Origin: Actinomycetota bacterium
Lineage (GTDB): Bacteria > Actinomycetota > Acidimicrobiia > IMCC26256 > VFJJ01
Reading direction: 5' to 3'
NCBI GenBank assembly: GCA_009886115.1
Contig: VFJJ01000204.1
Location: 1 to 33,895, forward strand
Length of the DNA stretch: 33,895 nucleotides
The stretch's first letter is position 1. The number at the start of each line of letters is the position of its first letter. Below are positions 8,692-29,169 of the stretch, piece by piece. The position numbers and the translations under genes are program-made. The notes beneath the pieces were generated by a model that saw nothing but the letters and a program-made list of their open reading frames with translations, did no database searches and was not told the DNA's origin.

Positions 8692-9285
8692 TCAGACCGT
8701 GAGCGCGGCCACGATCTCGTCGAGGACGGCGGCGATGCGCTCGCTGCGCACCTCGACCGTCTCCTCGTAGTAATCGTTGGGGACCACCACGTAGCGCAGA
8801 TCGGGCAGGCCGAGCAGCCGAGCGTTCGCCGCCAACGCCGGCACGAACGGCGGGGTCACCAGCGTGACCGTCGGGATGCCCATGCGCTCCAGGTTCACGG
8901 CGTCGAGCACACTGCCCGACGTGCACGAACCTCATTTGGCGAGGCCGTTTACGACCCCCGAGCAGCTCCGCAGATGGGCGAGCAGCTCGTCGCCGGCGGG
9001 CCGTGACAGCACCGGCTTGCAGATCCGCGGCGAGTCGGCGAGGACGGCCGTCCCGTAGCGGCGCCGCAGCCCAGCCTCGATCTCGATCGTGTAGCCGTAG
9101 AAATCGGGTCCCTGCTGGCGGCTCTGCTCGTTCACCATGAAGCCGATCAGCCCGTCCATGGCGGGCATGCGCGGCGCCAGCCCGATGGAGGACTGCTCGC
9201 GCACCTGGCCTCGGGGATCGACGATCTCCATACGCCCCTTGGGCTCGACGTTCGCCACAACGTTTCGTTCCCCGGCGTCGCTCAT
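8692..9285 (-). CDS. UGSC-family candidate selenoprotein 1 (197 aa, in-frame TGA at 8932-8934 read as Sec118)
   Basis: ORFs 8932..9471 and 8692..8910 are in the same frame, joined by GCC AAA TGA GGT TCG TGC ACG (A-K-U-G-S-C-T). ATG 9285 overlaps the upstream stop (ATGA). A hairpin follows the UGA. Confidence 0.85.
8892..8931 (-). promoter_or_regulatory. Candidate bacterial SECIS hairpin directly 3' of the UGA
   Basis: GGUUCGUG-CA-CGUCGGGCA-(GUG)-UGCUCGACG-C-CGUGAACC: 8-bp and 9-bp stems including G-U pairs, with the loop G at +20 from the UGA. Confidence 0.65.
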
Positions 9286-10346
9286 GGTTCCTCGATCTCC
9301 CTCGTGACGGCGTAACCGCCGAGATGACCCCAACCTGGGCACACGACCGCCCACGGGATGCTGTCGGCGCCGCTGACCATGACGTGGATGGCCTCGGGCC
9401 GCTCGACGCAGGGGACGAGCGTGTCGTCGCTCGACTGGTCGACCCACGCGGGCCACCATTCGTACCACCACCGGGGATCGTTGTCGGGCCGGCGGGGCGA
9501 ACGCGGCCGGAGATCGCCGAGTCGCCGTCGGGCCAGCCGGAACAGCGTGTCCTGCACTGCGGTGCGGTCGAAACCGTGCCGTGCCAGGTGCCGCGCCTCC
9601 GACGGCGAGAACACCACGAGAGCCTCGCCCATGGTGTGGGCGTTGTTGTTGCCGAGCCCGGCGAGATGGTCGGCCACCTGGCCGAGGCGCTGCTCGGGAT
9701 CGTCGCCCACTCCCCAGAACGACACGCTCTGCGGGCTCTCACACGCGAACACCAAGACTGCGCTCCGGCCGGCACCGGCGCCCGCCATCGACGGCCAAGG
9801 CGTGTTGTCGGGCTCCTCGGCGATGCAGAACGCCAGCCGCCCGGGATGGCCGAAGACCTCTTTCACCGGATCGCCCGGCCGAGCACCACCCAGGTTCCAG
9901 AGCACGAGCTTGACCGCCCGACCGATGGCCACGTTGGCCCGGGCACCACCGCCGCTGAACACCGACTCTGTGGTGGCCATCCCAAGCCGGCCGACGGCCG
10001 GCCCCGACACGATCACGAGGGGCCAGCAGCCGTGGGTGGTGCAGGCCACGCCCCTGAGGTTGAAGCGCTCGTCGAGCATGGCCTCGATCGCCGCGACCAC
10101 GACCGGCATGTGCTCGGGCAGGCAGCCGGCCATGGCGGCGTTGGCCGCGACGGCCTCCACGGTGGCAATCCCGTTCCGAGGGGGAACGAGCCCGATCTCG
10201 GCGTGGGCTTCCCGGCCCGTCGCCGCGACCAGTGCATCGACGATGGCCCGGTCGGGCGCGAACGTGGGAAGCCCGTCGGTGAGGCCCAGTCGGTACGAGA
10301 GCTCGGTCCACGCCCCCGGCTCGATCGTCGACGGGAGACCGTCCAT
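9282..10346 (-). CDS. Conserved hypothetical 'DGLP' protein, partner of UGSC protein 1
   Basis: GLTDGLPTFAP, TVEAVAANAAMAGC, IGRAVKLVLWNLGG and FGHPGR; clear paralog of 27563..28618. Start 10346 has a GGGAG RBS; alternatives are 10370 and 10388. Confidence 0.85.
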   Translation of the reverse strand: MDGLPSTIEPGAWTELSYRLGLTDGLPTFAPDRAIVDALVAATGREAHAEIGLVPPRNGIATVEAVAANAAMAGCLPEHMPVVVAAIEAMLDERFNLRGVACTTHGCWPLVIVSGPAVGRLGMATTESVFSGGGARANVAIGRAVKLVLWNLGGARPGDPVKEVFGHPGRLAFCIAEEPDNTPWPSMAGAGAGRSAVLVFACESPQSVSFWGVGDDPEQRLGQVADHLAGLGNNNAHTMGEALVVFSPSEARHLARHGFDRTAVQDTLFRLARRRLGDLRPRSPRRPDNDPRWWYEWWPAWVDQSSDDTLVPCVERPEAIHVMVSGADSIPWAVVCPGWGHLGGYAVTREIEEP

Positions 10347-10405
10347 GGTTGCTCCCGGTCCCTCGGGCATGACGGTGCGAGTGTCCATTGAGTAGAACCT
10401 CGCTC

Positions 10406-11230
10406 ATGAGCGCACTGACGGGCAAGACGGCACTGATCACCGGCGGCGCTGGGGGCATCGGACGGGCGACGGCCGAGGTCCTCGCCCGCGATGGGGCCCA
10501 GGTCACCATCGCCTCCCGCAGCGCCGGACACCTCGAGGAGGTCGCCGATCGGCTCGGGCCCAACGTGCGCTGGACGGTGTGCGACGCCACCGTTCCCGAG
10601 CAGGTGCTGGCGGCCATCGCCTTCGCCAGCGAACCCACGGGCCGTCTCGACATGGCGGTCTCGGTGCCCGGCGCCGGGCTCATGAAGCCTCTGTTGATGA
10701 CCGGCGACGACGAGTTCATGGCCGACGTCGACTTCAACGTGCGGGCCCCCTACCTCATGATCAAGCACGCCGGTCGACAGATGGCCCGCGACGGCGGAGG
10801 GGCGATCGTGGCGATCTCGTCGACGGCGGCCGTCCAGCCCGCGCGCTACCTGGCCTCGTACTGCGCAGCGAAAGCCGCCGTCGACATGATGTGCCGCGTC
10901 GCGGCCGACGAGCTGGGCGCGGTCGGGGTGCGCGTGAACGTGGTGCGTCCCGGGCTCACGGCCACCGATGCGCCCGCGGGCATGATCGCCAACCCGCAGA
11001 TCGTGGGCCTCTACATGGAGCAGCAGCCCATCACCCGGGTCGGCGAGCCCGACGACATCGCCCAGGCGTGTCGCTATCTGGTGGGTCCCGAGTCGTCGTG
11101 GGTCACCGGGCAGTGCCTCACGATCGACGGCGGTCACACGCTGCGGGCCTTCCCGCATCTCATCGGGCTCATCGAGTCGCGCTGGGGGGCCGACGCCGTG
11201 GCCCGCGGCATGCGCGGCGAGCTCGACTGA
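10406..11230 (+). CDS. Short-chain dehydrogenase/reductase (SDR)
   Basis: TGGAGGIG, YCAAK, VNVVRPG and VTGQCLTIDGG motifs. Confidence 0.93.
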   Translation: MSALTGKTALITGGAGGIGRATAEVLARDGAQVTIASRSAGHLEEVADRLGPNVRWTVCDATVPEQVLAAIAFASEPTGRLDMAVSVPGAGLMKPLLMTGDDEFMADVDFNVRAPYLMIKHAGRQMARDGGGAIVAISSTAAVQPARYLASYCAAKAAVDMMCRVAADELGAVGVRVNVVRPGLTATDAPAGMIANPQIVGLYMEQQPITRVGEPDDIAQACRYLVGPESSWVTGQCLTIDGGHTLRAFPHLIGLIESRWGADAVARGMRGELD

Positions 11231-11280
11231 CCCCAAATTTGCGGAGGGGTGGGGGGGTGCGGCTGGGGCGGAGGGGCGGC

Positions 11281-13005
11281 TCAGGACGGGCGCACGACCA
11301 CGCCGGGGAGCGCGCCGGTGATCTCGCCGTCGATCACGATGGGCACACCGTTGACGATCGTGGCGTACACACCCATGGGCCACGAGCGCCAGCGGCCTTC
11401 GCCGTTGGGGAAGTCGTGCACGAACTCCTTGCGATCCGGGGCGATGGTCTCCGGGTCGAAGACCATCAGATCGGCAGCGAAGCCCGGCCGGATCTGGCCC
11501 CGGTCGCTGAAACCCGCCAGCGACGCCGGGATCTGGGTCATCAGGCGGACGGCCTCTTCCAGGCTCCAGCCACCCCATTGCCTGACCCAGCGGTCGAAGA
11601 ACCACGACGACCACTCAGCGCCGTCATCGCGGTCGAGGTGGGCTCCACCGTCGGACACGCCGACGATCATGTGCGGATCGCCGCCGGCGGTGCGGGTGCG
11701 CGCTCGCCAGGCGTCGGTCTCGGTGGCCCACAGCCATTCGGTCTCGAGATCATCGGCCAGTGCCAGGTCGAGCATCACGTCGACCGGTGCTCGTCCCTGC
11801 TCGCGTGCGATGTCGGCGACGGTCCGACCGACGAGAGCGGTGTGCTCGTGCCTGGTCACCCGGTTCACGAACAGCATCGACCATCGGGGCGGCGGCAGCG
11901 TCGGCCCGGCGGCAGGGTCACGATTGGGGTTCTCGACATCGGAGCGGATCTCGTCGCGGAAGGCCGGATCGCGCAGCATGGCCATCCGCGCCTCGACGTC
12001 CGAGGCCTCTCTGAACATCCGGTTGAACCGGAGGCACCCTTCGTACAGCGTGGTACCGGCCGCCAACGTGAACGTGCGATTGAACGGCTTGGCCATCAGC
12101 ATCGAGTAGACGGCGGCACCCCGGGCCGAGGCGTCGTCGACGAAGAGCCGGGCGCCGTCCCACGCATCGCCGACGGCGCCGACCTTGGAGCCCGCGCCCA
12201 GGCCCTGGATGATGACGGGCACCCGTCCGGCCAGCGACAGGCGGATCAGCAGCTCCTGGTCGGCATCGTCGAGCCCACCGATCGAAGACAGCGGCAGGTA
12301 GCCGACGCTGCCGGCGTTGGCCCGTCCGGCCGCGACCACGAGCGCTTCGAGCTCGTCGACCGAGGCGAGGCGGCTCGGCACGGGACGGTCGAACGAGTCG
12401 AGGTGGGTGGGCGCGTGGCTCGACGAGAACCCGGCCGCGCCGGCAGCGACGGCGTCGGCGACGATGACCACCATCTCGGCGATCTCGGCCGCGGTCGCCT
12501 CCCGCTGGTAGCAGTCATCGCCCATCACCCAGCGCCGCACCGCCGAATGACCCACGTAGCACGCCAGGTTCACGCCGAGACGGCCCTCCAGCGAGGCCAG
12601 GTACTCGGGGAACGTCTCGAAGCCCCACGGCAGGCCCTGCAACGCCTTGGCCGACATGCCCTCGACCCGGGCGAACATCTGCACGATGAACTCGCGGTCG
12701 GCGGCCCGGGTCGGGGCGATCGAGAAGCCGCAGTTGCCGGCCAGCACCGTCGTGACACCGTGGAAGCACGACGACGTGGCGTAGGGCTCGAAGGTGACCT
12801 GCGGGTCGTAGTGGGTGTGGATGTCGACGATCCCCGGCGCCACACACCGGCCGGTGGCGTCGATCACCTGGTCGGCATCGGCCGGGTCGACGAAGCCGAC
12901 GGTGGCGATGCGCCCGTCCTTCACGCCCACGTCGGCGCGGCGCCGGGGCAACCCCGTCCCGTCGACGACCGTCCCGCCGACCACCGCCAGATCGAACCGC
13001 GACAT
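11281..13005 (-). CDS. N-acyl-D-amino-acid deacylase-like amidohydrolase
   Basis: VVDGTG, PGIVDIHTHYD, GVTTVLAGNCG, SDGGAH and GFAADLMVFDP motifs. Confidence 0.92.
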   Translation of the reverse strand: MSRFDLAVVGGTVVDGTGLPRRRADVGVKDGRIATVGFVDPADADQVIDATGRCVAPGIVDIHTHYDPQVTFEPYATSSCFHGVTTVLAGNCGFSIAPTRAADREFIVQMFARVEGMSAKALQGLPWGFETFPEYLASLEGRLGVNLACYVGHSAVRRWVMGDDCYQREATAAEIAEMVVIVADAVAAGAAGFSSSHAPTHLDSFDRPVPSRLASVDELEALVVAAGRANAGSVGYLPLSSIGGLDDADQELLIRLSLAGRVPVIIQGLGAGSKVGAVGDAWDGARLFVDDASARGAAVYSMLMAKPFNRTFTLAAGTTLYEGCLRFNRMFREASDVEARMAMLRDPAFRDEIRSDVENPNRDPAAGPTLPPPRWSMLFVNRVTRHEHTALVGRTVADIAREQGRAPVDVMLDLALADDLETEWLWATETDAWRARTRTAGGDPHMIVGVSDGGAHLDRDDGAEWSSWFFDRWVRQWGGWSLEEAVRLMTQIPASLAGFSDRGQIRPGFAADLMVFDPETIAPDRKEFVHDFPNGEGRWRSWPMGVYATIVNGVPIVIDGEITGALPGVVVRPS

Positions 13006-13171
13006 GACCCCGCTCCCCTCCGACGAACCGCCCGCCGAGACCGGCCAAGGGTAACGAGCGGACCAGGTTCGATCATCCTCGCTGCAGCGTCCGGGGCTCT
13101 ACGATGCCCGTCCCTGGGCCGGTACGGCAGCCCCGGGCGATAACGACCGGCGATGACGACAAGGGGATCTC

Positions 13172-13924
13172 ATGCGAGGGTTGAACGGCAAGGTCGCGGC
13201 AGTGACCGGCGCGGCGTCGGGGATCGGCCAGGCGACGGCCATCAGGCTGGCCGAGGAGGGCGCATCGGTGGCCTGCCTCGACCTCAACGTCGACGCCGCC
13301 GGGGCGACCGCAGCGACCATCACCGGCGCCGGGGGACAGGCCCTGGCGGTGCGCTGCAACGTGGCTGACGCTGGCGACGCCGCGGCGGCGATCGCGGCGA
13401 CGGTCGAACGCTTCGGTCACCTCGACGTGCTCTGCAACATCGCCGGCATCGGCCACTTCGCCGACGACCGCACCGAGACCCTCGAGTGGTGGAACCGCAT
13501 CATCGGCGTCAACCTCACCGGCACGTTCATCATGTCGCAGGCCGCGCTCCCCCACCTTCTCGAAACCAAGGGCACCATCGTCAACACGGCCTCGACGGCC
13601 GCCATGAAGGGCCAGCCCTGGAGCTCGGCCTACTCGGCCAGCAAGGGAGGCGTGATCGCGCTCACCCAGACGATGGCCGTCAACTGGGCCAAGCTGGGTG
13701 TGCGCGTGAACTGCGTCGCGCCCGGGGGCGTCACCACACCGATCACCGACCAGTTCACCGACGTGCCCGAGGGCGCCGACCTCGAGCTGATGGCCCGCAT
13801 CATGCCGTTCTCACGCTTCGGCGAGCCCGCCGAGCTGGCGTCGGTGTTCGCCTTCCTGGCCTCCGACGAGGCCTCCTACGTGAACGGCTTCGTCGTGAGG
13901 GTCGACGGCGGCATGCAGATGTGA
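13172..13924 (+). CDS. Short-chain dehydrogenase/reductase (SDR)
   Basis: TGAASGIG, NIAG, YSASK, VNCVAPG and VDGG motifs. Confidence 0.95.
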   Translation: MRGLNGKVAAVTGAASGIGQATAIRLAEEGASVACLDLNVDAAGATAATITGAGGQALAVRCNVADAGDAAAAIAATVERFGHLDVLCNIAGIGHFADDRTETLEWWNRIIGVNLTGTFIMSQAALPHLLETKGTIVNTASTAAMKGQPWSSAYSASKGGVIALTQTMAVNWAKLGVRVNCVAPGGVTTPITDQFTDVPEGADLELMARIMPFSRFGEPAELASVFAFLASDEASYVNGFVVRVDGGMQM

Positions 13925-14049
13925 GCCGAAGGGGACGGGCGCGGTCGCCGGCACGGGATTCGCACGCGACCTGGCACACGGTGATGAGGGGCCCCCACCG
14001 CACCTGGCGGGATGGCCGGAGGCAGGCGTGCCAGAGACCACACGGCGCC

Positions 14050-14688
14050 TCAGCCGATCGTCACCAGGGCCGCCGGTGAGGCCAGGCGGTGACTGATGAG
14101 CGTGTCGATGGCCACGACGCCGATGCCGTGGTCGAATGCGAACCGCTCGAGGCGGGGGCGGCGGGCCGGCGAGCCGTCGTCGTCGAGCACCTCACAGATC
14201 ATCGCTGCGGGGTAGCACCCGGCCAGACGGGCCAGATCGACGGCCGCCTCGGTGTGGCCGGGGCGCTCGAGAACACCGCCGGGACGGGCCCGCAACGGGA
14301 AGACGTGTCCCGGCCGGCTGAACGCGTCGCCGCCGAAGCCCGGATCGGCGACGGCCCGAACGGTCGCGGCGCGGTCGTGCGCCGAGATGCCACTGCCGCC
14401 GTTGCACAGGTCGATCGACACGGTGAACGCCGTCGACATGGCGCAGGTGTTGTCGACGACCATCGGAGCGAGCGCCAGATCGTCGAGCCGCCGACCGTCG
14501 CACGGGAGACAAACCAGCCCGCACGCCTGGCGGATCATGAAGTTCACGGCCTCGGGGGTCACGTGCTCGGCCGCCATCACGAGGTCGCCCTCGTCCTCGC
14601 GGTCCTCGTGATCGACCACCAGGACCATGGCCCCCGCGGCGATGCGTTCCAGGGCGTCCTCGACGCTGATCGTGGTCATGGGCCTCAT
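14050..14688 (-). CDS. ribB: 3,4-dihydroxy-2-butanone-4-phosphate synthase (stand-alone)
   Basis: DHEDREDEGDL, GLVCL, TAFTVSID, GISAHDR, RPGHVFPL, GHTEAAVDLARLAG and ICE motifs. No GTP cyclohydrolase II domain. Confidence 0.92.
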   Translation of the reverse strand: MRPMTTISVEDALERIAAGAMVLVVDHEDREDEGDLVMAAEHVTPEAVNFMIRQACGLVCLPCDGRRLDDLALAPMVVDNTCAMSTAFTVSIDLCNGGSGISAHDRAATVRAVADPGFGGDAFSRPGHVFPLRARPGGVLERPGHTEAAVDLARLAGCYPAAMICEVLDDDGSPARRPRLERFAFDHGIGVVAIDTLISHRLASPAALVTIG

Positions 14689-14763
14689 GGGACTGGCTCT
14701 CTCTCGCTCGGGGCTCGGGCCGCCACGCCCCGCCAAGGGGACGTTCCGTCCGAACCCAGCCGT

Positions 14764-15858
14764 TCAGTGGTGGACCCGCTCCATCGTCCGATGGGCTGCG
14801 GGCAAGCCCACGACCATCCGACAACCCTGCGGGGTGTTGCGTTCAGCACGGATCGAACCGCCGTGGAGATCGACGATCCACCGGGCGATGGCCAAGCCCA
14901 GGCCGGCACCTCCGCTCGCGGAGGCCCGGGCGGCATCGGCGCGATAGAAGCGCTCGAACACCCGGTCGGCGTCGTCGTCGGCGATCCCCGGGCCTTCGTC
15001 GCACACCTCGAAGACCACCGACGATCCCGGCTCGTCGCGCCGGGCCCGGAGGACCACCGGCCGGCCCGACGGCGTGTGCCGGAGTGCATTCTCGAGCAGG
15101 TTGGCCACCACCTGATGGATCCGCTCGGGATCGCCGTCGGTCGCCAGGCCCGTCCCGGCCACCTCGGGGGTGACTTCGAGCGTGACCTCGACGTCGGTCG
15201 TGTGGAGCCTGGCCTCGGCCGCGGCGTCCTCGAGCACGGCCATCAGATCGAAGGCGCAGCGTTGCAGGGGCACGGCGCCCGACTCGAGCTTCGACAGGTC
15301 GAGGAGCTGCCGCACCAGCCGGCCCAGGCGCTCGACCTGCTTGAGCATCGTCCGCAGCGTGTCGGGAGCTGGCGGCTCGACACCGTCGACGAGGTTCTCG
15401 AGCACGACCTGGAGCGCCGAGATCGGCGTGCGCAGCTCGTGCGACACGTTGGCAACCAGGTCGCGCCGCATCCGATCGACCTCGGCGAGCTCGGCGGCCA
15501 TGGCGTTGAACGCCCGGGCCAGCTCGCCCACCTCGTCGCGCGAGGTCGTCTCGACCCGGCGTCCGTAGTCGCCCTTGGCCATGGCCCGGGCGGCCTCAGC
15601 CATGTCGCGCAACGGGGTGGTGACCCCCCGCACGAGCAGCCGCACGAACACCAGCGCCACAACCATCGCCAGCAAGCCAGCCACCGACGGCCACACGTCG
15701 AGCCAGCGGATGGCGGCCCAGAACACGAAGACCGTGCTCGAGGTCGAGGCGAAGACGGCGGCCCCGATCTTCCACTTGAGCGTGGGCAACGGATCGAGCG
15801 GACGATCGCCGATCTCCTTGAGCCGCTCACGGTCGAGCTCAACCCCGCGTACCTTCAC
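14764..15858 (-). CDS. HAMP-domain sensor histidine kinase
   Basis: Two TM segments, HAMP (DEVGELARAFN), SHELRTP, NLLENA, DEGPGI and GAGLGLAI. Confidence 0.95.
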   Translation of the reverse strand: MKVRGVELDRERLKEIGDRPLDPLPTLKWKIGAAVFASTSSTVFVFWAAIRWLDVWPSVAGLLAMVVALVFVRLLVRGVTTPLRDMAEAARAMAKGDYGRRVETTSRDEVGELARAFNAMAAELAEVDRMRRDLVANVSHELRTPISALQVVLENLVDGVEPPAPDTLRTMLKQVERLGRLVRQLLDLSKLESGAVPLQRCAFDLMAVLEDAAAEARLHTTDVEVTLEVTPEVAGTGLATDGDPERIHQVVANLLENALRHTPSGRPVVLRARRDEPGSSVVFEVCDEGPGIADDDADRVFERFYRADAARASASGGAGLGLAIARWIVDLHGGSIRAERNTPQGCRMVVGLPAAHRTMERVHH

Positions 15859-16643
15859 CGGCTCGCGTCCTTCGCTGGCGATGCTCCGTCACGAGCCTCG
15901 AGGCGCTGCTCGACGGCGTAGCCGACCCCGTGGACCGTCCGGATCACCATCGCGCCCACCTTGCGGCGGATGGCCTGCACGTGCGAGTCGACGGTGCGGG
16001 CACCCGAACCGTCGCGGTAGCCCCACACCTCGGCGAGCAACTGCTCCCGGGTGTACACGACGCCAGGGCGCCGGGCCAGGAAGTGCAGGAGGTCGAACTC
16101 CAATGGGGTGAGGTGCACCACCTCGCCGGCCTGACGGACCCTCCGGGCGGCCGGGTCGATCTCGACATCGCCGATGCGGCGGACGGGCGCGTGCGGCGTG
16201 GCGTCGAGCCCGTCTGCGGTTCCTGCGGTTGCGCGGTCGGCGTCGAGCCGGGCTCGGGACCGCTCGTCGCGGCGCAGGATCGCCTGCACCCGGGCCACGA
16301 GCTCCCGGGCCCGGAACGGCTTGGTCATGTAGTCGTCGGCGCCGACCGCGAGCCCCACGACCAGATCTGTCTCGCTGTCGCGGGCGGTCAGCATGAGCAC
16401 CGGCACGGGCTGGTCGCGTTGGATGCGCCGGCACACTTCCAGGCCGTCGAAGCCCGGCAGCATCACGTCGAGCACCACGAGATCGGGGTGCAATCGCTCG
16501 CAGGCCGCCACCGCCGACGGCCCGTCACCGGCGATCTCGACGGCGTAACCCTCGCTGCGCAGGCGCGCCGCGACCGCCGAAGCGATCGACGGTTCGTCCT
16601 CGACCACGAGAATCGTCCGCACAGGCGTTTGGAGCGCAGCCAC
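15855..16643 (-). CDS. OmpR/PhoB-family response regulator
   Basis: VVEDE, LDVMLP, LTAR, GADDYMTKPF and winged helix (RTVDSHV, IRTVHGVGY). GTG 16643 lies 6 nt after a TATCCT -10 box. Confidence 0.95.
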   Translation of the reverse strand: MAALQTPVRTILVVEDEPSIASAVAARLRSEGYAVEIAGDGPSAVAACERLHPDLVVLDVMLPGFDGLEVCRRIQRDQPVPVLMLTARDSETDLVVGLAVGADDYMTKPFRARELVARVQAILRRDERSRARLDADRATAGTADGLDATPHAPVRRIGDVEIDPAARRVRQAGEVVHLTPLEFDLLHFLARRPGVVYTREQLLAEVWGYRDGSGARTVDSHVQAIRRKVGAMVIRTVHGVGYAVEQRLEARDGASPAKDASR

Positions 16644-16718
16644 ACAGCCAGGATAAGGACGCGATGCGGAGGAGTCCGCTCCAGGATGCGGAGATTTCGC
16701 GGTTTTCTCGGCTCGCAG

Positions 16719-16755
16719 GTCGCAGTTTCCGCGACCTGGTCGCGGAAACTGCGAC
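16719..16755. terminator. Perfect inverted repeat with 18-bp arms (terminator or REP-like)
   Basis: GTCGCAGTTTCCGCGACC-T-GGTCGCGGAAACTGCGAC, 26 nt downstream of the lipoprotein stop. No adjacent U-tract. Confidence 0.55.
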
Positions 16756-16781
16756 ATGCCCGGGTGGTTGGGACCGAGCCG

Positions 16782-18161: not shown

Positions 18162-18224
18162 CGGGCTCTCCCTCGTTTGCGTGATGCCGGGGATACGGAT
18201 CGGGAGCGGTCGGCGTTCAATCGG

Positions 18225-19341: not shown

Positions 19342-19353
19342 GCAGACTTCTCG

Positions 19354-19400: not shown

Positions 19401-19414
19401 CCGGCTGCGCTTGC

Positions 19415-20140: not shown

Positions 20141-20224
20141 CGCCCGTACGCTACGACCCGGCTGTCCCGGTGCGCCCGCGGACGGCCGTACCAATGACAC
20201 GACTCGATCCCAGGAGCACCTGCC

Positions 20225-21600: not shown

Positions 21601-21642
21601 CGGCCGCTCCACCACTCGGCGTCGGGGCCCAGCGACCATGCA

Positions 21643-21688
21643 CCGTGACGAGCACCGTGGGAGCGCCGTGACGAGCGCCGTGGGAGCG
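21643..21688. repeat. 2 x 23-bp tandem repeat CCGTGACGAGC(A/G)CCGTGGGAGCG between convergent genes
   Basis: Read directly, one mismatch between copies. Confidence 0.8.
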
Positions 21689-21689
21689 A

Positions 21690-22517
21690 CTACTCCCGGG
21701 CCGGCATCGGGATGGCCGAGAGGTCGATCTGGCCCGTCACCATGGCGCCGAGGAAACCGCCGTCGGTATGGAGCGCCTCGCCGTTCACGTAGGACATGTG
21801 CGGGCTGTTGAGCATCACCATGGGCCAGGCCTGCTCGGCCGCGGTCGAACGCCGGGCGATCGGACCGATGAACGCATCGATGAGGGCCGCGCCGTTGGCC
21901 TCCTCGAAGAACGGCATCATCGCGGTCGTGGTCGGCCCGGGGTTGATGCAGTTGATGCGCTTGCCCTCACGGATGAGCGAGGCTCCCCGCCAGGCCACCC
22001 AGGCGTTGATCACCTTCTTCGAGGTTCCGTAGCCATTGCCCGCGTACATCGACGGGTTGGCCTCGAGCCAGGCCTTGGCGGCGTCGAAGCCGTCGGTCGT
22101 GACGAGCGGCATGAGCGTCGCCAACTCCTGCTGCCAGCCCAGGCCGGCGTTGGAGGCCACGAAGCACGCCGCCCCGTTGGCCGCCATGTTGGGCACGATC
22201 GACTCGATGAGATGCCGGCCGCCGGCGAAGTTCACCAGCATCACGTCGAGGTCGGAGAACGGCGGCCCGGGAAGGCCGGCGCAATTGAACACGCCGAGGA
22301 CATCGGCGCCGACCGCCGCGGCCGCCTGCTCGATCGCGGATCGGTCACGCAGGTCGACCTCGAGGCTCTTGGCCCCCGACGTGGTCGTCGCCTTGACGTC
22401 GAGGCCGTAGACCTCGGCCCCGAGGCTCACCAGGATCTCGGTCGCAGCTTGGCCCATCCCCGACGCCGACCCGGTGACGACCACCCGCCGGCCGTCGTAT
22501 CCCAACACGTCGCCCAT
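21690..22517 (-). CDS. SDR oxidoreductase (coniferyl alcohol / 3-alpha-hydroxysteroid dehydrogenase-like subgroup)
   Basis: VTGSASGMG, NCAG, an inserted segment before YGTSK, INCINPG and TDGG. Confidence 0.9.
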   Translation of the reverse strand: MGDVLGYDGRRVVVTGSASGMGQAATEILVSLGAEVYGLDVKATTTSGAKSLEVDLRDRSAIEQAAAAVGADVLGVFNCAGLPGPPFSDLDVMLVNFAGGRHLIESIVPNMAANGAACFVASNAGLGWQQELATLMPLVTTDGFDAAKAWLEANPSMYAGNGYGTSKKVINAWVAWRGASLIREGKRINCINPGPTTTAMMPFFEEANGAALIDAFIGPIARRSTAAEQAWPMVMLNSPHMSYVNGEALHTDGGFLGAMVTGQIDLSAIPMPARE

Positions 22518-22702
22518 GACCGCCTCGCCTTCCCGGCGCACGGAGCGCCGCATCGTCAACTCCCAGAGTGCTCGTGAGACGAAACTACCCGTGTCGCGTC
22601 GCTCGCCGCTCGCAGGCAACAGCCCGGGGGCGAGCCACCTGCGCGCGCCCCACGAAGACCGCCGCATTGCGCGCACCCGTCCGGGTCGGGCAGCGTGCAG
22701 CC

Positions 22703-25027
22703 ATGGTGTCCACGAGCGATCACGAGACGCACGGCAGCATCCTCGGAACGCGCGTCCTGCGTATCGAGGACCCCCGCTTCATCACCGGCCAGGGCAGCTA
22801 CATCGCCGGCTTGCGGCTCGACGGTGCCGCGCACGTGGTCTACGTGCGCTCGACGATGGCCCATGCCCGGGTGAGCGCCATCGACGTGCGTGCAGCCGCG
22901 GCCGCGCCCGGCGTGGTCGCCGTGTACACCGCTGCCGATATCACCGACCTCCCGCCGGCGCCTCCGACCGTCGGGTTCGCCAACGCGGCCATGAAGCGGC
23001 CGTTCCTGGCCAGTGGCGTGGTGCGCTTCGTCGGCGAGCCGGTGGTGGCCATCGTCGCCGAGACCTACGCGCAGGGGCTCGACGCGGCCGATCTGGTGAT
23101 CGTCGACTACGACGCGCTCCCCGTGGTCGTCGATGTGGGCGATGCCGCTCGCGACGAGGTGCTCCTGTTCCCTGAGGCCGGGACCAACGTGGCGGCCGAC
23201 TTCCCCGCCACGGGCACCCAGGGGCCCGTCGACGACCTGTTCGAGGGCTGCGAGATCGTCGTCGAAGCGCGCATGATCAACAACCGCATGGCCGTGGCGC
23301 CCATCGAGCTGCGGGCGTGCGTGGCGGTGTGGGACGGTACCCGGCTCACGCAGTGGTCGTGCTCCCAGGGCGCCCACAACGCCCGGAACGGCATCGCGGC
23401 CCGGCTGGGTCTCACCCCCGAGCAGGTGCGCGTGATCACGCCCGATGTGGGCGGCAGCTTCGGAGGCAAGCAGGGCACCTACGCCGAGGAGATCCTCGTC
23501 GGATGGCTCGCCATCCGCCTCGGCCGACCGGTGCGCTGGACCGAGTCGCGCAGCGAGCACATGCAGGCCTTCGTGCACGGTCGCGGGCAGGTGCAGCACG
23601 CCAAGCTGGGCGGTACCCGGGCCGGACGGCTGCTCGCCTACCAGCTCCATGCCGTGCAGGACTGCGGCGCGTACCCCTCGAGCTTCGGGGCCTTGATGCC
23701 CATGTTCACCCGGCTCATGGCCAGCGGGTGTTACGACATCGCTCGGATCTCGGCGAGCGGGCAGGCCATCCTCACGAACACCTCGCCCATGGGTGCGTTC
23801 CGAGGGGCGGGCCGTCCCGAGGCGACCGCGGCGATCGAGCGGATGGTCGATCTGTTCGCGGCCGAAGCCGGGCTCGATCCGGTCGACGTGCGGCGGCGCA
23901 ATCTCCTGAAGCCCGACGACTTCCCGTACACGACGCCAACGGGGGCGAGCTACGACTGTGGGGCCTACGAGGCAGCCCTCGACAGCGCTCTCGACGCGGC
24001 CGGCTACGCCGAGCTGCGCGCCGAGCAGGCGCGCCGCCGAGCGTCGAACGCCACCAAGCTGCTCGGGATCGGCCTGGCGAGCTACGTCGAGATCACCAAC
24101 CCCATGGCCGGAGGGGAGTTCGGTGCCGTCGCCGTGCACGCCGACGGCACCGCCACGATCCGCACCGGCGTCTCGCCCCACGGCCAGGGCCACGCCACGG
24201 CGTTCGCCATGATCGTCAGTGACGCCACGGGAATCCCGATGGGATCGATCGATCTCGTGTACGGCGACACCGACACCGTGCCGAGGGGAGGCGGCACCGG
24301 AGGGTCGAGGTCGTTGCAAGCGGGTGGCACGGCGGTGAGCGCGGCGACGATCGCCCTGGTCGAGCTGGCCCGCCAGCGTGCCGCTGAGGTGTTGGAGGCC
24401 AACCTCGACGACGTGGTGCTCGACAGCTCGGTCGTCGGAGGCGCGTTCCACGTCGTCGGGACGCCGACGGTCAACGTGTCGTGGGCAGCGCTGGCGTCGT
24501 CCGACGCGTCGGGCGACGGGTACCTCGAAGCCGAGGCCGACTTCAAACCCGACGGGGCCACGTTCCCCTTCGGGGCCCACGTCGCGGTGGTCGAGGTCGA
24601 TCGCGAGACGGGGGAGGTCGAGCTGATCCGCCTGGTCGCCGTCGACGACGCCGGACGCATCCTCAACCCGTTGCTGTTGGAGGGTCAGATCCACGGCGGC
24701 CTGGCCAGCGGGGTCGCCCAGGCTCTGTACGAGGAGATCCGCTTCGACACCGATGGCAACCCGCTCACGTCGAGCTTCGCCGACTACTCGATCATCTCCG
24801 CGGCCGAGCTCCCCAGCTTCGAGCTCGTCGAGATGGAGACCCCGACGCCCATGAACCCCTTGGGCGCCAAGGGCATCGGGGAGTCAGGAAGTGTCGGGTC
24901 GACGCCGGCCGTCCAGAACGCCGTCATCGATGCCCTGGCGCACCTGGGGATCCGCCATCTCGATCTGCCCCTCACGCCGCAGCGCGTCTGGACGGCCCTG
25001 GCCGCGCTCCCGCCGCCGGCCGGGTGA
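22703..25027 (+). CDS. Xanthine dehydrogenase-family molybdopterin-binding large subunit (CoxL form II-like)
   Basis: RIEDPRFITGQG, VGGSFGGK, AFRGAGRPEA, HGQGHAT, GQIHGG and GAKGIGESG motifs. Confidence 0.93.
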   Translation: MVSTSDHETHGSILGTRVLRIEDPRFITGQGSYIAGLRLDGAAHVVYVRSTMAHARVSAIDVRAAAAAPGVVAVYTAADITDLPPAPPTVGFANAAMKRPFLASGVVRFVGEPVVAIVAETYAQGLDAADLVIVDYDALPVVVDVGDAARDEVLLFPEAGTNVAADFPATGTQGPVDDLFEGCEIVVEARMINNRMAVAPIELRACVAVWDGTRLTQWSCSQGAHNARNGIAARLGLTPEQVRVITPDVGGSFGGKQGTYAEEILVGWLAIRLGRPVRWTESRSEHMQAFVHGRGQVQHAKLGGTRAGRLLAYQLHAVQDCGAYPSSFGALMPMFTRLMASGCYDIARISASGQAILTNTSPMGAFRGAGRPEATAAIERMVDLFAAEAGLDPVDVRRRNLLKPDDFPYTTPTGASYDCGAYEAALDSALDAAGYAELRAEQARRRASNATKLLGIGLASYVEITNPMAGGEFGAVAVHADGTATIRTGVSPHGQGHATAFAMIVSDATGIPMGSIDLVYGDTDTVPRGGGTGGSRSLQAGGTAVSAATIALVELARQRAAEVLEANLDDVVLDSSVVGGAFHVVGTPTVNVSWAALASSDASGDGYLEAEADFKPDGATFPFGAHVAVVEVDRETGEVELIRLVAVDDAGRILNPLLLEGQIHGGLASGVAQALYEEIRFDTDGNPLTSSFADYSIISAAELPSFELVEMETPTPMNPLGAKGIGESGSVGSTPAVQNAVIDALAHLGIRHLDLPLTPQRVWTALAALPPPAG

Positions 25028-25091
25028 GTCCGGCCGCTCCCCGCCCACCAGCCCCCACCACTCGCGAGTACCCACGGTCGGCGAGCGAGGC

Positions 25092-25991
25092 TCAGCGGTC
25101 GTCGAGCACGGCGGCGAGGGTCCGCGCTCCGATCGCGTGCATGGCCGGGTTATCGGCCGAGCTGGCGAGGATGGCCAGCGCGATCGCCAGCGCCGAGGCT
25201 CTGGAGCGGGCCCAGGTGTCGTCGTCGATCGGGTCGGAGGCGTTCGCCGCGGCACGGCGGAAGCTCGGTCTGGCCTCGGGCGGAAGCATCATCCACGCCA
25301 CAGAAAGGTCAGACGCCGGATCACCCGCGCACACGTCACCGAAGTCGATCACACCCGACACCCGTCCCTCATCGACGAGGATGTTCATCGGGTGCATGTC
25401 GCCGTGCAGCCACACCGCTGGCCCCGACCACGGCGCCACCCCGACGAGCTCGTCCCATGCGGCGAGCACCGCCGGCCCGTCGACGAGATCGCCAAGCTGC
25501 TCAATCCGTTGGCGAGCAGCGGCGGCGCGCTCCGTCAGGGGCACACCGCGGTAGGGGTTCGTGGGGGCGTCGGCGGGTGCCGGCTGGTGCATCGCTGAGA
25601 GGAAGCCACCCAGCGCTAGGGCGGCGGCCACCGGATCGTTGGGCGGGGTGAGGGCCGCCGGGGACCCGGGGAGCCATGGGCAGATGCTCCACGACCAGGG
25701 GTAGCCATAACCGGGCCGGCCGATCCTGACCGGGACGGGCGTCGGCAGCGGCAGCCTCGGCGCCAGGACCGGGAGCCAACGCTGCTCGTCCTCGACGAGC
25801 GGCGCGGCCAGCGCCCGGCGCGGCAGACGCACCGCGAGCTCATCACCCAGGCGGAACATCACGTTGTCCCAACCCGACGCCACCTCGACCAGCGCCAGCC
25901 CGGCCAGGTCGGGATGCTGCTCCGCCAGCAGAGCCCGGACCAGCGCCCCGTCGATGTCGACCTCAGCAGCGGGCGTCGGGGCGGTCGTCAT
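25092..25991 (-). CDS. Aminoglycoside phosphotransferase (APH / choline kinase-like) family protein
   Basis: SGWDN, VRLPR, EQRWL, WLHGDMHPMN and IDFGD...GDPA.DL motifs. Confidence 0.9.
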   Translation of the reverse strand: MTTAPTPAAEVDIDGALVRALLAEQHPDLAGLALVEVASGWDNVMFRLGDELAVRLPRRALAAPLVEDEQRWLPVLAPRLPLPTPVPVRIGRPGYGYPWSWSICPWLPGSPAALTPPNDPVAAALALGGFLSAMHQPAPADAPTNPYRGVPLTERAAAARQRIEQLGDLVDGPAVLAAWDELVGVAPWSGPAVWLHGDMHPMNILVDEGRVSGVIDFGDVCAGDPASDLSVAWMMLPPEARPSFRRAAANASDPIDDDTWARSRASALAIALAILASSADNPAMHAIGARTLAAVLDDR

Positions 25992-26069
25992 CGGTCGATC
26001 AGGCTAGGCCGAAGTTGAGTAGGCGTCGCGTTGCCGGTCGACGGCCCGCCGCGTGAGGCGGCGCGTCGC

Positions 26070-27329
26070 CTATCCCTGTCTGCTGGGCGGCCGCCAGAGC
26101 GTGCTGATGGGAAGGGCCCAGATTCGGTCGTCGATCTCGAAGGGCAGCCCCCCGCTGTAGAGCAGCGCTCCGAACCTGAAGGTGTCTCCGATCCGGTCGC
26201 GGAGCCACATCAGCCCTCTGGCATCGCCCCGATCGACGCTGGTGGATGACTTGACCTCGACGCCGACGATCGCACCTGGGCGCTCGAGAACGATGTCAAC
26301 CTCTTTCCCGTCACGATCGCGAAGGTGAAAAAGGGCGGTGTTGACGGCGACGGTTTCGATGTACGTGAGCAGCTCTGACACAACGAACGTCTCGAAGAGT
26401 TGCCCCACGAGCGCGACGTCGCGTCCCAGTGTCTGGTCGTCGACGTTGAGGAGGTGCGCTGCCATTCCGGGATCGACCACATGAATCTTCGGGGACCGCG
26501 TGAGACGGTGAAGGCGTGTGGTGTGCCAGGCCGGCACACGTGCGATGACCGACAGGTCTTCCAGCAACCCGAGATAGGCGTCCGCGGTACGGAAATCGAC
26601 GGACGCGTCATTGGCTGTCGCTTGCTTGTTGAGCTCCTGACCTGTCCGCGCGACGCTCGATTCGAGAACTGCTCGCAGCTTCGTCCCCGCGATCGTTCGC
26701 CCAGAGATCTGCGATGCATCGCGTTCGATGAGCTGTTCGACGTAGGCCCCGAACCACCGGCCGCGGTTGCGCCCACGCAGCTTCTGCACCGCGGGAAACC
26801 GTCCGGCAACGATCATCGAGAGGTAATCGTTGCGACGATATTCCGACTGCTGAAAACGCTGACGACCCGGCTCGAAGATGGCATCGATGGGGTTGTAGTC
26901 GTCGCGCCGTTCTCGCTCGGCCTGGGTCAGGCCGAGCATGCGGACCCGAATGAGGCGACCGGTGCCCGGCCAGGTTGCTGCCTGGTGGGCGGCGCGAACG
27001 GAACCCGTGACGATGAACCGTCCAACCCGGCCCGCCCGGTCGCCATCCACGGCGCGCTTGATCGCGCCGAGGATCTCCGGGACCTCCTGCCACTCGTCCA
27101 CCAGAACGGTGCCCTTCGACGTAGCCAGAATCCCGTCGGGGTCTTCCGACGCGGCGAGGCGAGTCCCAGGTTCGGAGAGATCGATCACGGTGTCAGCGAA
27201 CTGGGTCATCGAGGTCGACTTCCCGCAGCCGCGAGGGCCGACGACCATGATCGCCGGGAAAGCCGGCAGGAGCTCGTTGGCGATCAACCGATCGATGCTG
27301 CGGGGATAGAGCTTCTCAGGCATCGACAC
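26070..27329 (-). CDS. AAA_14-type ATPase with C-terminal DUF4143 (PD-(D/E)xK-like) domain
   Basis: GPRGCGKST Walker A, VDEWQ Walker B, TGS, PKIHVVDPG, FETFV..EL and EVDIV...EVKS. Confidence 0.9.
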   Translation of the reverse strand: MSMPEKLYPRSIDRLIANELLPAFPAIMVVGPRGCGKSTSMTQFADTVIDLSEPGTRLAASEDPDGILATSKGTVLVDEWQEVPEILGAIKRAVDGDRAGRVGRFIVTGSVRAAHQAATWPGTGRLIRVRMLGLTQAERERRDDYNPIDAIFEPGRQRFQQSEYRRNDYLSMIVAGRFPAVQKLRGRNRGRWFGAYVEQLIERDASQISGRTIAGTKLRAVLESSVARTGQELNKQATANDASVDFRTADAYLGLLEDLSVIARVPAWHTTRLHRLTRSPKIHVVDPGMAAHLLNVDDQTLGRDVALVGQLFETFVVSELLTYIETVAVNTALFHLRDRDGKEVDIVLERPGAIVGVEVKSSTSVDRGDARGLMWLRDRIGDTFRFGALLYSGGLPFEIDDRIWALPISTLWRPPSRQG

Positions 27330-27426
27330 ACCACGGCGATGGCGCGATGAGGGTGCGACAGTTACGAATCATCGTCACCCTCGATCAACGAGCACGCTCT
27401 GGTACATGATCTGCCGAGCATACAAG

Positions 27427-27486
27427 CCAGTGATTGTCGGACTATGAATCCAGTGATTGCCGGACCTCGAATCCAGTGATTGCCGA
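27427..27486. repeat. About 2.6 direct repeats with 23-bp period (core CCAGTGATTG) upstream of the ATPase gene
   Basis: Copies start at 27427, 27450 and 27473. Confidence 0.8.
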
Positions 27487-27562
27487 GCGTGAGAACTCGC
27501 CAGCTTCCAACGCCTCACCCCCGAACGCGCCCCCGACGCCTTGAGCCGTCAGGGGCGGTGCA

Positions 27563-28618
27563 TCAGAACCCTCGAGTGACGGCTTGGGTGTTGCCCCAGC
27601 TGTGGATGGCGGCCGAGTGGAGGTTCCCGAGACCGCCGCACACCATCACCAGCACCGAGGCCGGGCGTTGGGCCAGGTGCACACGACCGTCGGTCGCGAC
27701 CCGGCCGGCGTCGGTGAGCGCCCGCTGATGGGCCGGCGGCCACCACTCGAGCGGGAGGCTGGCGTGTCGGTGGAGCAGCTCCTGCACATCGTCGATCGCG
27801 GGGACGTCGCGCCCGATGATCTCGGCCCACATCGGGTTGATGCAGACCAGGAACTCACTGTCGGGGCAGGCGACGAGGTAGCCGTTGGTGCCCATGGAAG
27901 CGACGGACTTCCCGATGATCTCCAGCAACTCGGTTCCGGTGGTGGCCACGGTGTCGCAGATGTTGGCCGTCCCCATGGCGCCGAACACGGTGACGGCGTC
28001 GCCGCGCACACCGCGTCGAACGGCGAGCGGTGCCCAGGGCGACCGGTCCTCCCATTCGCCGACCACGACGCCCGTCACCCGGCCGGGCTGGCCGAACACC
28101 GACTGCGATGTCGTCCCCACCACGTGCCCGGCGACGTTGCGCATCACGAGTCGCAGCGCTCGCCCGATCGCCGGCGCGGGGCCGGCCACGCCACCGAAGC
28201 AGCCGGCCCGGTACGGGACCCCCAGCCGGTCGCGGACCGGCCCGTTGACGAACACCGCTGGTACGACCGATCCCGTGGTGGCGTTGAGCCCGGCCAGGTC
28301 AAAGGTCGGCTCGACCATGGCTTCGAGCGCCGCGCACAGCAACGGCATGGCGTCGGAAGGCGCGCCGGCCATCACCGCATTGACGGCGAGGGCCTCGACG
28401 GTGCACACCCCGTTCGCCGGTGGGAGCACGGCCACGACGTCGTCGGACCGGCGTGTGGAGCCGGCCAGCATCGCCAGCACCCGCTCCTGCGTCGGGGGCA
28501 CCAGCGGCAGCCCGTCGCCCCAGCCCTGCTCGGCCGCGAACTCGGTGAACCCGACGACGTCGAGATCGACCTCGACCCGCTCGGCGCGGAGCACCGCGTC
28601 GGCCGCGGAGTCGGTCAC
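27563..28618 (-). CDS. Conserved hypothetical 'DGLP' protein, partner of UGSC protein 2
   Basis: GWGDGLPLVPPT, TVEALAVNAVMAG, IGRALRLVMRNVAG and FGQPGR. GTG start overlaps the upstream TGA. Confidence 0.88.
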   Translation of the reverse strand: MTDSAADAVLRAERVEVDLDVVGFTEFAAEQGWGDGLPLVPPTQERVLAMLAGSTRRSDDVVAVLPPANGVCTVEALAVNAVMAGAPSDAMPLLCAALEAMVEPTFDLAGLNATTGSVVPAVFVNGPVRDRLGVPYRAGCFGGVAGPAPAIGRALRLVMRNVAGHVVGTTSQSVFGQPGRVTGVVVGEWEDRSPWAPLAVRRGVRGDAVTVFGAMGTANICDTVATTGTELLEIIGKSVASMGTNGYLVACPDSEFLVCINPMWAEIIGRDVPAIDDVQELLHRHASLPLEWWPPAHQRALTDAGRVATDGRVHLAQRPASVLVMVCGGLGNLHSAAIHSWGNTQAVTRGF

Positions 28619-29169
28619 GGTGTCACTCCCAGGCTGCGCAAGAGCTCGGGCAGGAACCTCGCGGCGATCATGCGCACCTCGGTCTCGGGCTGGGTGTCGA
28701 GGGGATACGGCAAGATGACCAAGGGCAGCTGCGCTCGTCCGGCGCTGGCCGCCAGGGTCTCGCCCAGAGCCCGGAACTGCTCCGTGCAGACGGCGACCGC
28801 CGCCTTGTGCCCGTCGACCACGGCGAGAGCGTCGTGGATCGTCCAGGCCGTGCAGGAGCCTCAGTTGGCCAGGCCCACCACGGCCAGGTCGACGCCGGCC
28901 ACGAACTCGACGAGCTCACGCTCCATGCGCCGACCCTCGTCGCCGCTGCGCGACCCGGTCCGCCAGCGGACGATCTCGGCGCCCCGGGCCTCGAGCTCGG
29001 CCGACCAGACCTCGCCGATCCAGTCCCACGACCGCCACATGTGGTCGAGCCTGAGCCCGACCTTCAGGCCCGACAGGTCGACGCCGACGGTCGACGTTGG
29101 TGCCGCGGCGCCGGCGGGAGCGACCGATCGAGTAGCGGCTACCGGGCTGAGGATGAGACCTCTCGTCAT
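28615..29169 (-). CDS. UGSC-family candidate selenoprotein 2 (184 aa, in-frame TGA at 28861-28863 read as Sec103)
   Basis: ORFs 28861..29313 and 28615..28821 are in the same frame, joined by GCC AAC TGA GGC TCC TGC ACG (A-N-U-G-S-C-T). GAGGGAG RBS before ATG 29169. Confidence 0.85.
28819..28860 (-). promoter_or_regulatory. Weaker candidate SECIS hairpin 3' of the second UGA
   Basis: CACGGC/GCCGUG lower stem and UGGA-(CGA)-UCCA upper stem. The loop is at +20..+22, the same offset as in locus 1. Confidence 0.4.

Follow-up and report, generated by a model that had tools for sequence, protein, structure and literature searches.

What enzyme could be encoded by two neighbouring genes that occur twice on one contig, in opposite orders, one gene of each pair being crossed by an in-frame TGA? 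This question is raised by contig C101 (VFJJ01000204.1, assembly GCA_009886115.1) of an Actinomycetota bacterium, i.e., a stretch of 33,895 nucleotides analysed as a whole and referred to below as the window; the genome to which it belongs (5.45 Mb in 224 contigs) is the source genome. Each of the two modules combines a selenoprotein of the UGSC family with a larger protein, the partner, which carries the motif D-G-L-P. The two families are tightly linked by adjacency, by fusions in both orders, by mirrored trees and by a predicted interface. It is rather probable that a tethered U-x-x-C redox subunit (UGSC) reduces a substrate held by a partner whose fold is new, electrons being delivered via thioredoxin-type relays.

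UGSC is still listed as uncharacterised in a 2026 review (PMC13188914), and no function was found in print in the literature from 2015 on, as judged by titles and abstracts. This agrees with a preliminary description of the same DNA, made from the sequence alone, which held that no function of UGSC had been demonstrated.

The two modules and their selenocysteine codons

Read directly from the sequence, the four genes of the two modules all lie on the minus strand. The features are the following (Sec: selenocysteine; SECIS: selenocysteine insertion sequence).

9282..10385, minus strand: partner 1 ("DGLP" protein, "Unknown_1" domain family); possible ATG starts at 10385, 10367 and 10346; stop TGA at 9284-9282
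8692..9285, minus strand: UGSC1 selenoprotein gene; 197 amino acids when read through; ATG at 9285-9283, stop at 8694-8692
8932..8934, minus strand: Sec codon (UGA) of UGSC1, an in-frame TGA, giving U118 in U-G-S-C-T; conserved in the ortholog of a congener
8901..8921, minus strand: SECIS-like hairpin of UGSC1; 9 base pairs, GUG loop, +14 to +34 from the U of UGA
28615..29169, minus strand: UGSC2 selenoprotein gene; 184 amino acids when read through; ATG at 29169, stop TGA at 28617-28615
28861..28863, minus strand: Sec codon (UGA) of UGSC2, an in-frame TGA, giving U103
28830..28850, minus strand: putative SECIS hairpin for UGSC2, placed in the shared register and less strong than the UGSC1 hairpin
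27563..28618, minus strand: partner 2 ("DGLP" protein); 351 amino acids, GTG start, stop at 27565-27563

The ATG of UGSC1 overlaps the stop of partner 1 as ATGA, an internal ATG at codon 19 being an alternative start, and the stop TGA of UGSC2 overlaps the GTG of partner 2 (28618-28616) as GTGA. Partner 1 and partner 2 are 33% identical over 349 columns (E 3e-37) and have motifs in common. UGSC1 and UGSC2 are 29% identical and their TGAs fall in the same alignment column, within U-G-S-C-T. Judged from these alignments, the likeness of the two modules is far above chance. The coordinates, the two overlaps and the in-frame TGAs given in the preliminary description were exact on re-reading of the sequence; its list of partner motifs (D-G-L-P and others) is common to both partners and its statement that two divergent UGSC proteins keep a homologous TGA is borne out.

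When read through, UGSC1 and UGSC2 match Pfam PF24696 (UGSC) over nearly its whole length: 106.7 bits, E 1.9e-30 and profile positions 1-171 of 172 for UGSC1; 100.2 bits, E 1.8e-28 and positions 3-171 of 172 for UGSC2 (gathering cut-off: 25 bits). Both remain below the equivalog cut-off of NCBIfam NF041046 (71.2 and 58.5 vs. 125 bits), which they match with their C-terminal two thirds only. By these profile scores, UGSC1 and UGSC2 are diverged subfamily members of UGSC. The motif U-G-[S/A]-C is found in 8/8 UGSC copies of the source genome.

On the basis of sequence comparison, the TGAs of UGSC1 and UGSC2 are real Sec codons because four lines of evidence converge: (i) the Sec machinery; (ii) Cys in the homologs; (iii) a hairpin; (iv) purifying selection downstream of the TGA. 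Concerning the first, selA (458.7 bits), selB (293.7 bits, or 320.5 bits with its neighbours in frame), selD (398.4 bits) and tRNA-Sec (66.2 bits) are all above their family cut-offs in the source genome. Concerning the second, Cys is aligned to the TGA column in 70/70 database homologs, and the 11 genomic UGSC copies without TGA have TGC or TGT at the Sec position. The preliminary description had suggested that both the machinery and such Cys homologs be looked for, and both were thus found. Each of the 8 UGSC matches of the source genome contains exactly one in-frame TGA. Among 41 genomes of the order (source genome included, hereafter the order sample), 42 of the 51 UGSC matches paired with a partner have a TGA within the match, and in 41 genes among the fetched loci the TGA stands at the U/C codon of the motif.

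The hairpin is located at +14 to +34 from the UGA, its loop being GUG or GUU. With at least 7 of 9 pairs, it is formed in 30/41 Sec genes vs. 3/11 Cys genes, and the mean folding energy is -13.3 kcal/mol for Sec genes vs. -9.4 kcal/mol for Cys genes. Compensatory changes occur in it among paralogs. UGSC1 has 9/9 pairs in the shared register. UGSC2 has 7/9, and its minimum-energy fold favours another hairpin slightly further downstream; UGSC2 may use that neighbouring hairpin. A scan of the window at Rfam gathering scores, SECIS families included, gave 0 matches.

The ratio of nonsynonymous to synonymous substitution rates (dN/dS), calculated against the orthologs of the congener, is 0.16 for partner 1, 0.17 for UGSC1, 0.15 for partner 2 and 0.35 for UGSC2. 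Downstream of the TGA only, it is 0.13 for UGSC1 and 0.44 for UGSC2, i.e., purifying selection continues past the TGA, as judged from these ratios. No variant was found at the TGA of module 2 in the DNA contigs of the two studies (runs X1 and X4) that cover it. A 431-base contig from the metatranscriptome library of an ice sample is identical to the UGSC2 stretch 28685-29115 and spans the TGA. It is a weak hint of transcription, DNA carry-over being possible.

Two side observations concern module 2. The stretch 27678-27946 of partner 2 is covered, with 10 differences, by a contig of an ice-sample metatranscriptome library. The DNA data sets holding the module 2 sequence are freshwater-sediment metagenomes from several studies.

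Linkage, fusion and gene order

The source genome has 8 partner genes and 8/8 adjoin a UGSC gene on the same strand, five modules being in the order partner then UGSC and three in the reverse order. One of these three, on contig C193 (C193:148675-150357; L021:841-2550), is a fusion read in a single frame of 570 codons, the Sec-containing UGSC at the N-terminus being followed by the partner; the congener has the same fusion as an open frame of 578. The partner on contig C179 (L019:1036-2496) is lengthened at its N-terminus by ~130 residues, which include a CPTC motif; no Pfam family was found for this extension at E up to 1e-4.

In the order sample, UGSC is present in 24/41 genomes (22 above the family cut-off) and the partner in 21/41. 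All 51 partner matches (51/51) are adjacent to and co-directional with UGSC. Conversely, 51 of the 55 UGSC matches have a partner, the exceptions being 2 partial matches and 2 Cys forms. When 151 genomes were sampled evenly across the phylum, 11 of them, source genome included, had the partner. In the other 10 positive genomes, 12/12 partner matches lie beside UGSC or are fused to it (coordinates read by eye). Overall, this is the case for 55/55 partner genes in 50 Actinomycetota genomes other than the source genome. The adjacency or fusion of the two families, proposed for verification in the preliminary description, is borne out in the genomes sampled.

The partner family is large: a profile search over 1.84 billion cluster representatives (clusters at 50% identity) gave 7,982 clusters at E up to 0.001, or 2,449 when the limit was set at 1e-30. 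Among the best 150 homologs, 75 are longer than 400 residues and were classified as follows.

17/75: full N-terminal UGSC domain
1/75: partial N-terminal UGSC domain
24/75: start with the stretch of UGSC encoded downstream of the Sec codon, i.e., Sec fusions cut by the gene caller
4/75: partner followed by UGSC, cut off immediately ahead of the Sec position
3/75: N-terminal AhpC/TSA-Redoxin domain
1/75: ferredoxin-thioredoxin reductase catalytic (beta) chain
1/75: C-terminal pyridine-nucleotide disulfide oxidoreductase (Pyr_redox_2 flavoprotein)
24/75: no Pfam family

The motif C-G-S-C is found by pattern in 10 of the 17 full-UGSC fusions, and 7 of the 24 long homologs without Pfam family are tandem double partners. 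On the UGSC side, 18 of the 120 best homologs are 262-284 residues long. PF01106 (Nfu/NifU) is present on 4/120, and a CxxC motif occurs in the N-terminal domain of the three long ones that were read.

It must be noticed that the link of UGSC to the partner domain is not new: Zhang and Gladyshev (2008, PLoS Genet, PMC2398784), for whom UGSC is a major selenoprotein of the Global Ocean Sampling (GOS) data, show a "UGSC/Unknown_1" fusion. In Fig. S1A of that paper, the Sphingomonas wittichii row of Unknown_1 and the corresponding block of partner 2 are near-identical residue by residue, as compared by eye. A hypothetical protein of Rhizorhabdus wittichii is 61% identical to partner 2. The C193 copy is of the same kind as the 2008 fusion, UGSC being N-terminal. 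Unlike that fusion, each module of the window consists of two distinct genes coupled in translation, both orders being represented, and eight modules are present in the genome. Moreover, one conserved Cys is marked in Unknown_1 (PMC2398784), whereas partner 2 has Ala at this position. The obligate complex of a small redox subunit and a larger subunit, put forward in the preliminary description, is well supported by the linkage and by the interface predicted below; its core link had been published in 2008.

Trees were calculated from 46 of the 51 modules of the order sample, 5 modules of the congener being left out (quick mode, with support from the SH-like approximate likelihood ratio test, SH-aLRT, only). 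Gene order needs 2 changes on the partner tree and 2 on the UGSC tree, vs. a mean of 15.7 for shuffled orders, and none of 500 shuffles (0/500) was as low. The 22 UGSC-first modules form one clade, with a support of 100 (partner tree) and 99 (UGSC tree). The same subclades recur in both trees, so that every subfamily of partners is accompanied by a particular subfamily of UGSC. Module 2 belongs to a nine-member subclade (9/46 modules) of the UGSC-first clade, and module 1 stands on a long branch within the partner-first group. The Sec/Cys status also needs 2 changes. The idea that translational coupling had survived a swap of the gene order is not retained: because of the two changes on either tree and of the single 22-member clade, order is a marker of old clades, and on these trees the difference between the two modules is an old split into two clades rather than a local swap.

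Predicted folds and interface

The AlphaFold model of UGSC2 (77 sequences) has a mean predicted local distance difference test score (pLDDT) of 91.1 and consists of five parallel beta-alpha units, i.e., it is flavodoxin-like. Strand 95-101 is followed by U103 and then by helix 104-119. The fold matches are flavodoxin-like AzoR and NQO1 (E about 1e-4, template modelling (TM) score about 0.45) and generic Rossmann-like chains (Z 10-12), thioredoxin being absent among the matches listed. A search of the PDB by sequence with UGSC gave nothing meaningful, the best hit being a flavodoxin (E 0.054). Judged by this model and the matches listed, UGSC is probably of neither thioredoxin nor peroxiredoxin fold. 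A thioredoxin-like fold had been suggested for UGSC in 2008 (PMC2398784); the UGSC2 model is flavodoxin-like instead.

Two features nevertheless liken the modules to thioredoxin-fold oxidoreductases (thioredoxin, DsbA, peroxiredoxin-like selenoproteins): the U-x-x-C pair at the N-terminal end of a helix and the parts of the thioredoxin system that are fused into proteins of the family. The predicted five parallel beta-alpha units and the flavodoxin- and Rossmann-like matches would set UGSC2 apart from them.

The complex was modelled with a stand-in, i.e., a natural Cys-form pair whose partner shows 64% identity with partner 2 and whose UGSC shows 47% identity with UGSC2. The interface score ipSAE is 0.73 (0.73, 0.73 and 0.71 in the three runs) vs. 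0.02 for the best of 3 controls. At least 89% of contacts are shared between runs, and the partner has a pLDDT of at least 87. The mark of 0.73 is met by 116/157 solved complexes and by 2/215 mismatched pairs, a calibration which is only rough here since own alignments were used. The confident part of the interface in this model joins UGSC residues 1-11 with partner residues 5-19, 26-28, 36-39, 63-78 and 152-159. The UGSC segment is the conserved V/I-L-D/S-P peptide, in which Pro is invariant in 77/77 and 8/8 sequences; the partner residues are predicted beside the D-G-L-P motif and a helix with a conserved Asn. According to this model, UGSC and the partner probably bind each other.

Two Cys-form UGSC copies without adjacent partner were looked at as side observations. 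The first (L085, G016:C191) lies between genes for a TauD-family dioxygenase and for a glutathione-reductase-like flavoprotein (Pyr_redox_2 + Pyr_redox_dim), and the second (L084, G034:C69) has a TauD-family gene on one side. Both retain the N-terminal anchor-like peptide and thus provide no test of the anchor idea.

Proposed mechanism, alternatives and genomic setting

In the reading that we favour, each module would supply the two subunits of one selenium-dependent oxidoreductase, fused in one chain in some copies. UGSC would be the redox subunit, of predicted flavodoxin-like alpha/beta fold, in which Sec and the Cys three residues later (U-G-S-C) would lie where a helix begins, immediately behind a beta strand. 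Its N-terminal peptide (V/I-L-D/S-P, with the invariant Pro) would dock on the N-terminal region of the partner beside D-G-L-P, and so tether the redox domain. The ~350-residue partner would be the substrate-handling subunit, with Asp35, Thr73, Asn80, Arg153, Glu188 and Trp195 kept throughout. Thioredoxin-type relays would supply reducing equivalents to the U-x-x-C centre, and the selenol would then reduce a small-molecule substrate held by the partner; we infer this direction of electron flow, the reductase chemistry and a diversity of substrates. The family would have split into co-evolving subfamilies, eight of them in the source genome, probably with different substrates.

This arrangement resembles that of GrdB and PrdB, which belong to the glycine/sarcosine/betaine and D-proline reductases (PF07355; proproteins GrdE and PrdA), i.e., a UxxC selenoprotein with a larger, substrate-specific subunit. 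By analogy, the UGSC pair may work like these systems, thioredoxin-type reductants being suggested by the fusions. Grd and Prd reductases use pyruvoyl proproteins and thioredoxin, and the cleavage of GrdE and PrdA occurs at Cys. Unlike GrdE and PrdA, the partner matches nothing in Pfam or NCBIfam, and it lacks an invariant Ser or Cys from which a pyruvoyl group could arise. Neither UGSC nor the partner has a PF07355 hit, or any hit besides UGSC, at E up to 0.1, and GrdB/PrdB chains are absent among the fold matches listed for UGSC2. The motif of PrdB is given as UxxC in Table 2 of PMC2398784.

Site conservation in the partner was deduced from 88 sequences (partner 2 numbering). G85, R153 and E188 are invariant; D35, T73, N80, T115, N148, N161 and W195 are nearly invariant; no Ser or Cys is invariant. 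Most partners also have Cys at 86 (79/88), Cys at 185 (78/88) and His at 264 (66/88). The partner-first clade has Cys, Cys and His at these three positions in 21/23 sequences, and the UGSC-first clade has Trp at 264 in 22/22. Partner 1 keeps D, T, N, R, E and W at the conserved sites as well as both Cys, with Glu at the His position. Partner 2 has A86, V185 and W264 in place of Cys, Cys and His, and its whole subclade has Ala or Val at either Cys site.

Concerning the fold of the partner, neither partner 1 nor partner 2 matched any Pfam or NCBIfam family. The PDB was searched by sequence with 0 hits at E up to 10, another search giving one hit (E 1.5), and in the ESM Atlas the partner retrieved only its own unnamed clusters. 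The AlphaFold model of partner 2 (88 aligned sequences) has a pLDDT of 95.6 and a predicted TM score (pTM) of 0.93. Its best Foldseek matches are class I (iron-sulfur) fumarate hydratases, from Leishmania major (E 4.8e-5, probability 0.99) and also from M. jannaschii (7xky_A). The TM score is only 0.25-0.28, with a root mean square deviation above 11 A, and VIA-align gives Z 3.5-3.6 over 173-182 residues. None of the 48,161 chains compared by VIA-align reaches Z 5 (the best is chorismate mutase, Z 4.4); serine dehydratase and CyuA are among the low-Z matches. Foldseek also listed Toblerone-fold and PurM-like proteins, with E values of 5e-3 to 2e-2 and TM scores not above 0.21; these rows were judged to be due to chance. 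As modelled, the partner is without clear solved structural relative.

These data bear on an alternative in which UGSC is a redox "keeper" or activator, and the partner an enzyme such as a hydro-lyase or an isomerase, whose oxidation-sensitive Cys/His metal or disulfide site would be kept reduced or assembled by UGSC. The two Cys and the His of most partners, the iron-sulfur hydro-lyases at the top of the Foldseek list (with serine dehydratase and CyuA further down) and the Nfu-like CxxC domain fused to some UGSC proteins all fit it. We nevertheless hold it unlikely. The nine-member subclade of partner 2 (9/46) lacks either Cys and has Trp for His, yet it keeps Sec-UGSC and is still under purifying selection; partner 1 lacks the His; and the fold similarity is weak. 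Class I fumarate hydratases bind their [4Fe-4S] cluster with three Cys. The partner model matches them weakly in Foldseek, with no sequence match, and the partner differs in having two conserved Cys columns in the family, no third Cys in partner 1, and Ala and Val in partner 2. Because the partners of the module 2 subclade have no Cys at either conserved site, U-x-x-C is the only redox pair common to all modules. The missing Cys thus favours UGSC as the putative chemical actor over UGSC as the servicer of a metal or disulfide site.

It is improbable that the pair is a peroxide or general antioxidant system, i.e., a housekeeping selenol peroxidase or repair enzyme, even though 3 of the 75 long partner homologs carry an AhpC/TSA-Redoxin domain at the N-terminus and many bacterial selenoproteins are described as antioxidant thiol oxidoreductases (PMC13188914). 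Eight diverged, co-evolving modules, each in a different neighbourhood, fit specialisation better; the family is patchy (partner in 21/41 genomes of the order and in 11/151 of the phylum sample); and a thioredoxin or peroxiredoxin fold is not what the UGSC2 model and its listed matches suggest.

Still less credit is given to a carrier or transfer system that would handle selenium or sulfur itself or mature a cofactor. It could explain the Nfu-like domains fused to some UGSC proteins and the weak similarity that Foldseek gives between the partner and PurM-like proteins, selenophosphate synthetase and ThiL among them (E about 1e-2). These matches are at chance level (TM 0.13-0.17 over about 150 columns), no ATP-binding motif or family was found in the Pfam and NCBIfam scans, and Cys-form UGSC works with the same partner clade, selenium being therefore not obligatory.

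Finally, the possibility that the TGAs are ordinary stops or errors and the UGSC genes split fragments or pseudogenes is negligible: although every UGSC frame is interrupted under the standard code and the Rfam SECIS families stay below gathering score throughout the window, it is contradicted by the machinery, the Cys homologs, the hairpin and the dN/dS values, by the recurrence of the TGA in 42/51 paired matches across the 41 genomes and at the motif codon of 41 fetched genes, and by its presence in independent DNA contigs.

Several points weigh against the two-subunit oxidoreductase itself: (i) neither family has a described substrate, cofactor or activity; (ii) the role of substrate-handling subunit is proposed from the size, the conservation and the fusions of a partner whose fold has no clear solved relative; (iii) the Cys pair and the His of most partners could be a metal or disulfide site merely serviced by UGSC; (iv) the complex model is that of the stand-in pair and not of the proteins of the window, and it confidently places the N-terminal tail of UGSC only, not Sec relative to the partner residues; (v) 4/55 UGSC matches have no adjacent partner; (vi) both modules of the window are long branches in the trees; (vii) no third gene is conserved among the 147 flanking open reading frames (ORFs) called at 40 related loci, at most two on each side, or among 34 ORFs of the source genome, and no pathway is therefore indicated.

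The flanking genes vary across loci: luciferase-like monooxygenases (LLM), short-chain dehydrogenases/reductases (SDR), zinc-dependent alcohol dehydrogenases (Zn-ADH), amidohydrolases, AMP-ligases, cytochromes P450 and a Pyr_redox_2 flavoprotein. In the module 2 subclade, GFO/IDH/MocA genes flank 4/8 relatives, and nitroreductase and SMP-30-like genes are found near some of these and near one further relative. In the relatives of the C179 clade, the flanking genes include a molybdopterin oxidoreductase (3/9) and cytochrome b561 (3/9). The two divergent neighbours in the window, SDR (ATG at 10406, module 1) and LLM (29184/29337-30563, module 2), are both real. LLM is the immediate neighbour of 2/8 modules of the source genome, lies within two genes of 3/8 and is found at 5/40 related loci (called flanking ORFs). 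This adjacency is only mildly telling because the source genome has a very large complement of LLM (PF00296), with 99 matches over its 5.45 Mb (E up to 1e-10), of which four fall in the window; the association with LLM was thus set aside as evidence. The preliminary description had seen in these neighbours substrate-specific paralogs of organic-compound catabolism. The divergent genes stand, a conserved third gene is missing from the 40 loci and LLM is common in the genome: a catabolic, substrate-specific role, as suggested by gene content, is plausible and unproven.

Some side observations were made around the modules. The gap between partner 1 and the divergent SDR is 20 bases if partner 1 starts at 10385, in which case both promoters would have to lie inside the neighbouring coding regions, and 59 bases with the start at 10346. 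On the other side of module 1, a ribbon-helix-helix (CopG-type) ORF (8126-8362, plus strand) overlaps a PemK/MazF-like toxin ORF (8338-8667, plus strand); this type II toxin-antitoxin pair is convergent with UGSC1, whose end is ~25 bases away. In the ORF listing, partner 2 is directly followed downstream by a minus-strand ORF at about 26070-27250 with a Walker-A-like GPRGCGKS motif (P-loop ATPase).

A bolder form of the oxidoreductase reading can be put forward tentatively, and we regard it as possible though doubtful. UGSC and its partner would form a selenoenzyme of a new class, the fold of its catalytic subunit being one not yet met among solved structures. The tethered Sec would directly attack the substrate in a partner pocket made of Asp, Thr, Asn, Arg and Glu, U-x-x-C being the only conserved redox pair identified in the module 2 clade, whose partners have no Cys at the two conserved sites. 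The class would have radiated into substrate-specific reductases, and the eight of this freshwater-sediment actinobacterium would serve the breakdown of different organic compounds.

A partner that is fixed, co-evolving and probably bound turns the question of UGSC function into a concrete experiment. The source genome is useful in this respect, with its eight diverged modules and a natural fusion, and the clade whose partners lack the conserved Cys and His narrows the possible mechanisms. The partner family itself, in spite of its 7,982 clusters, is absent from Pfam.

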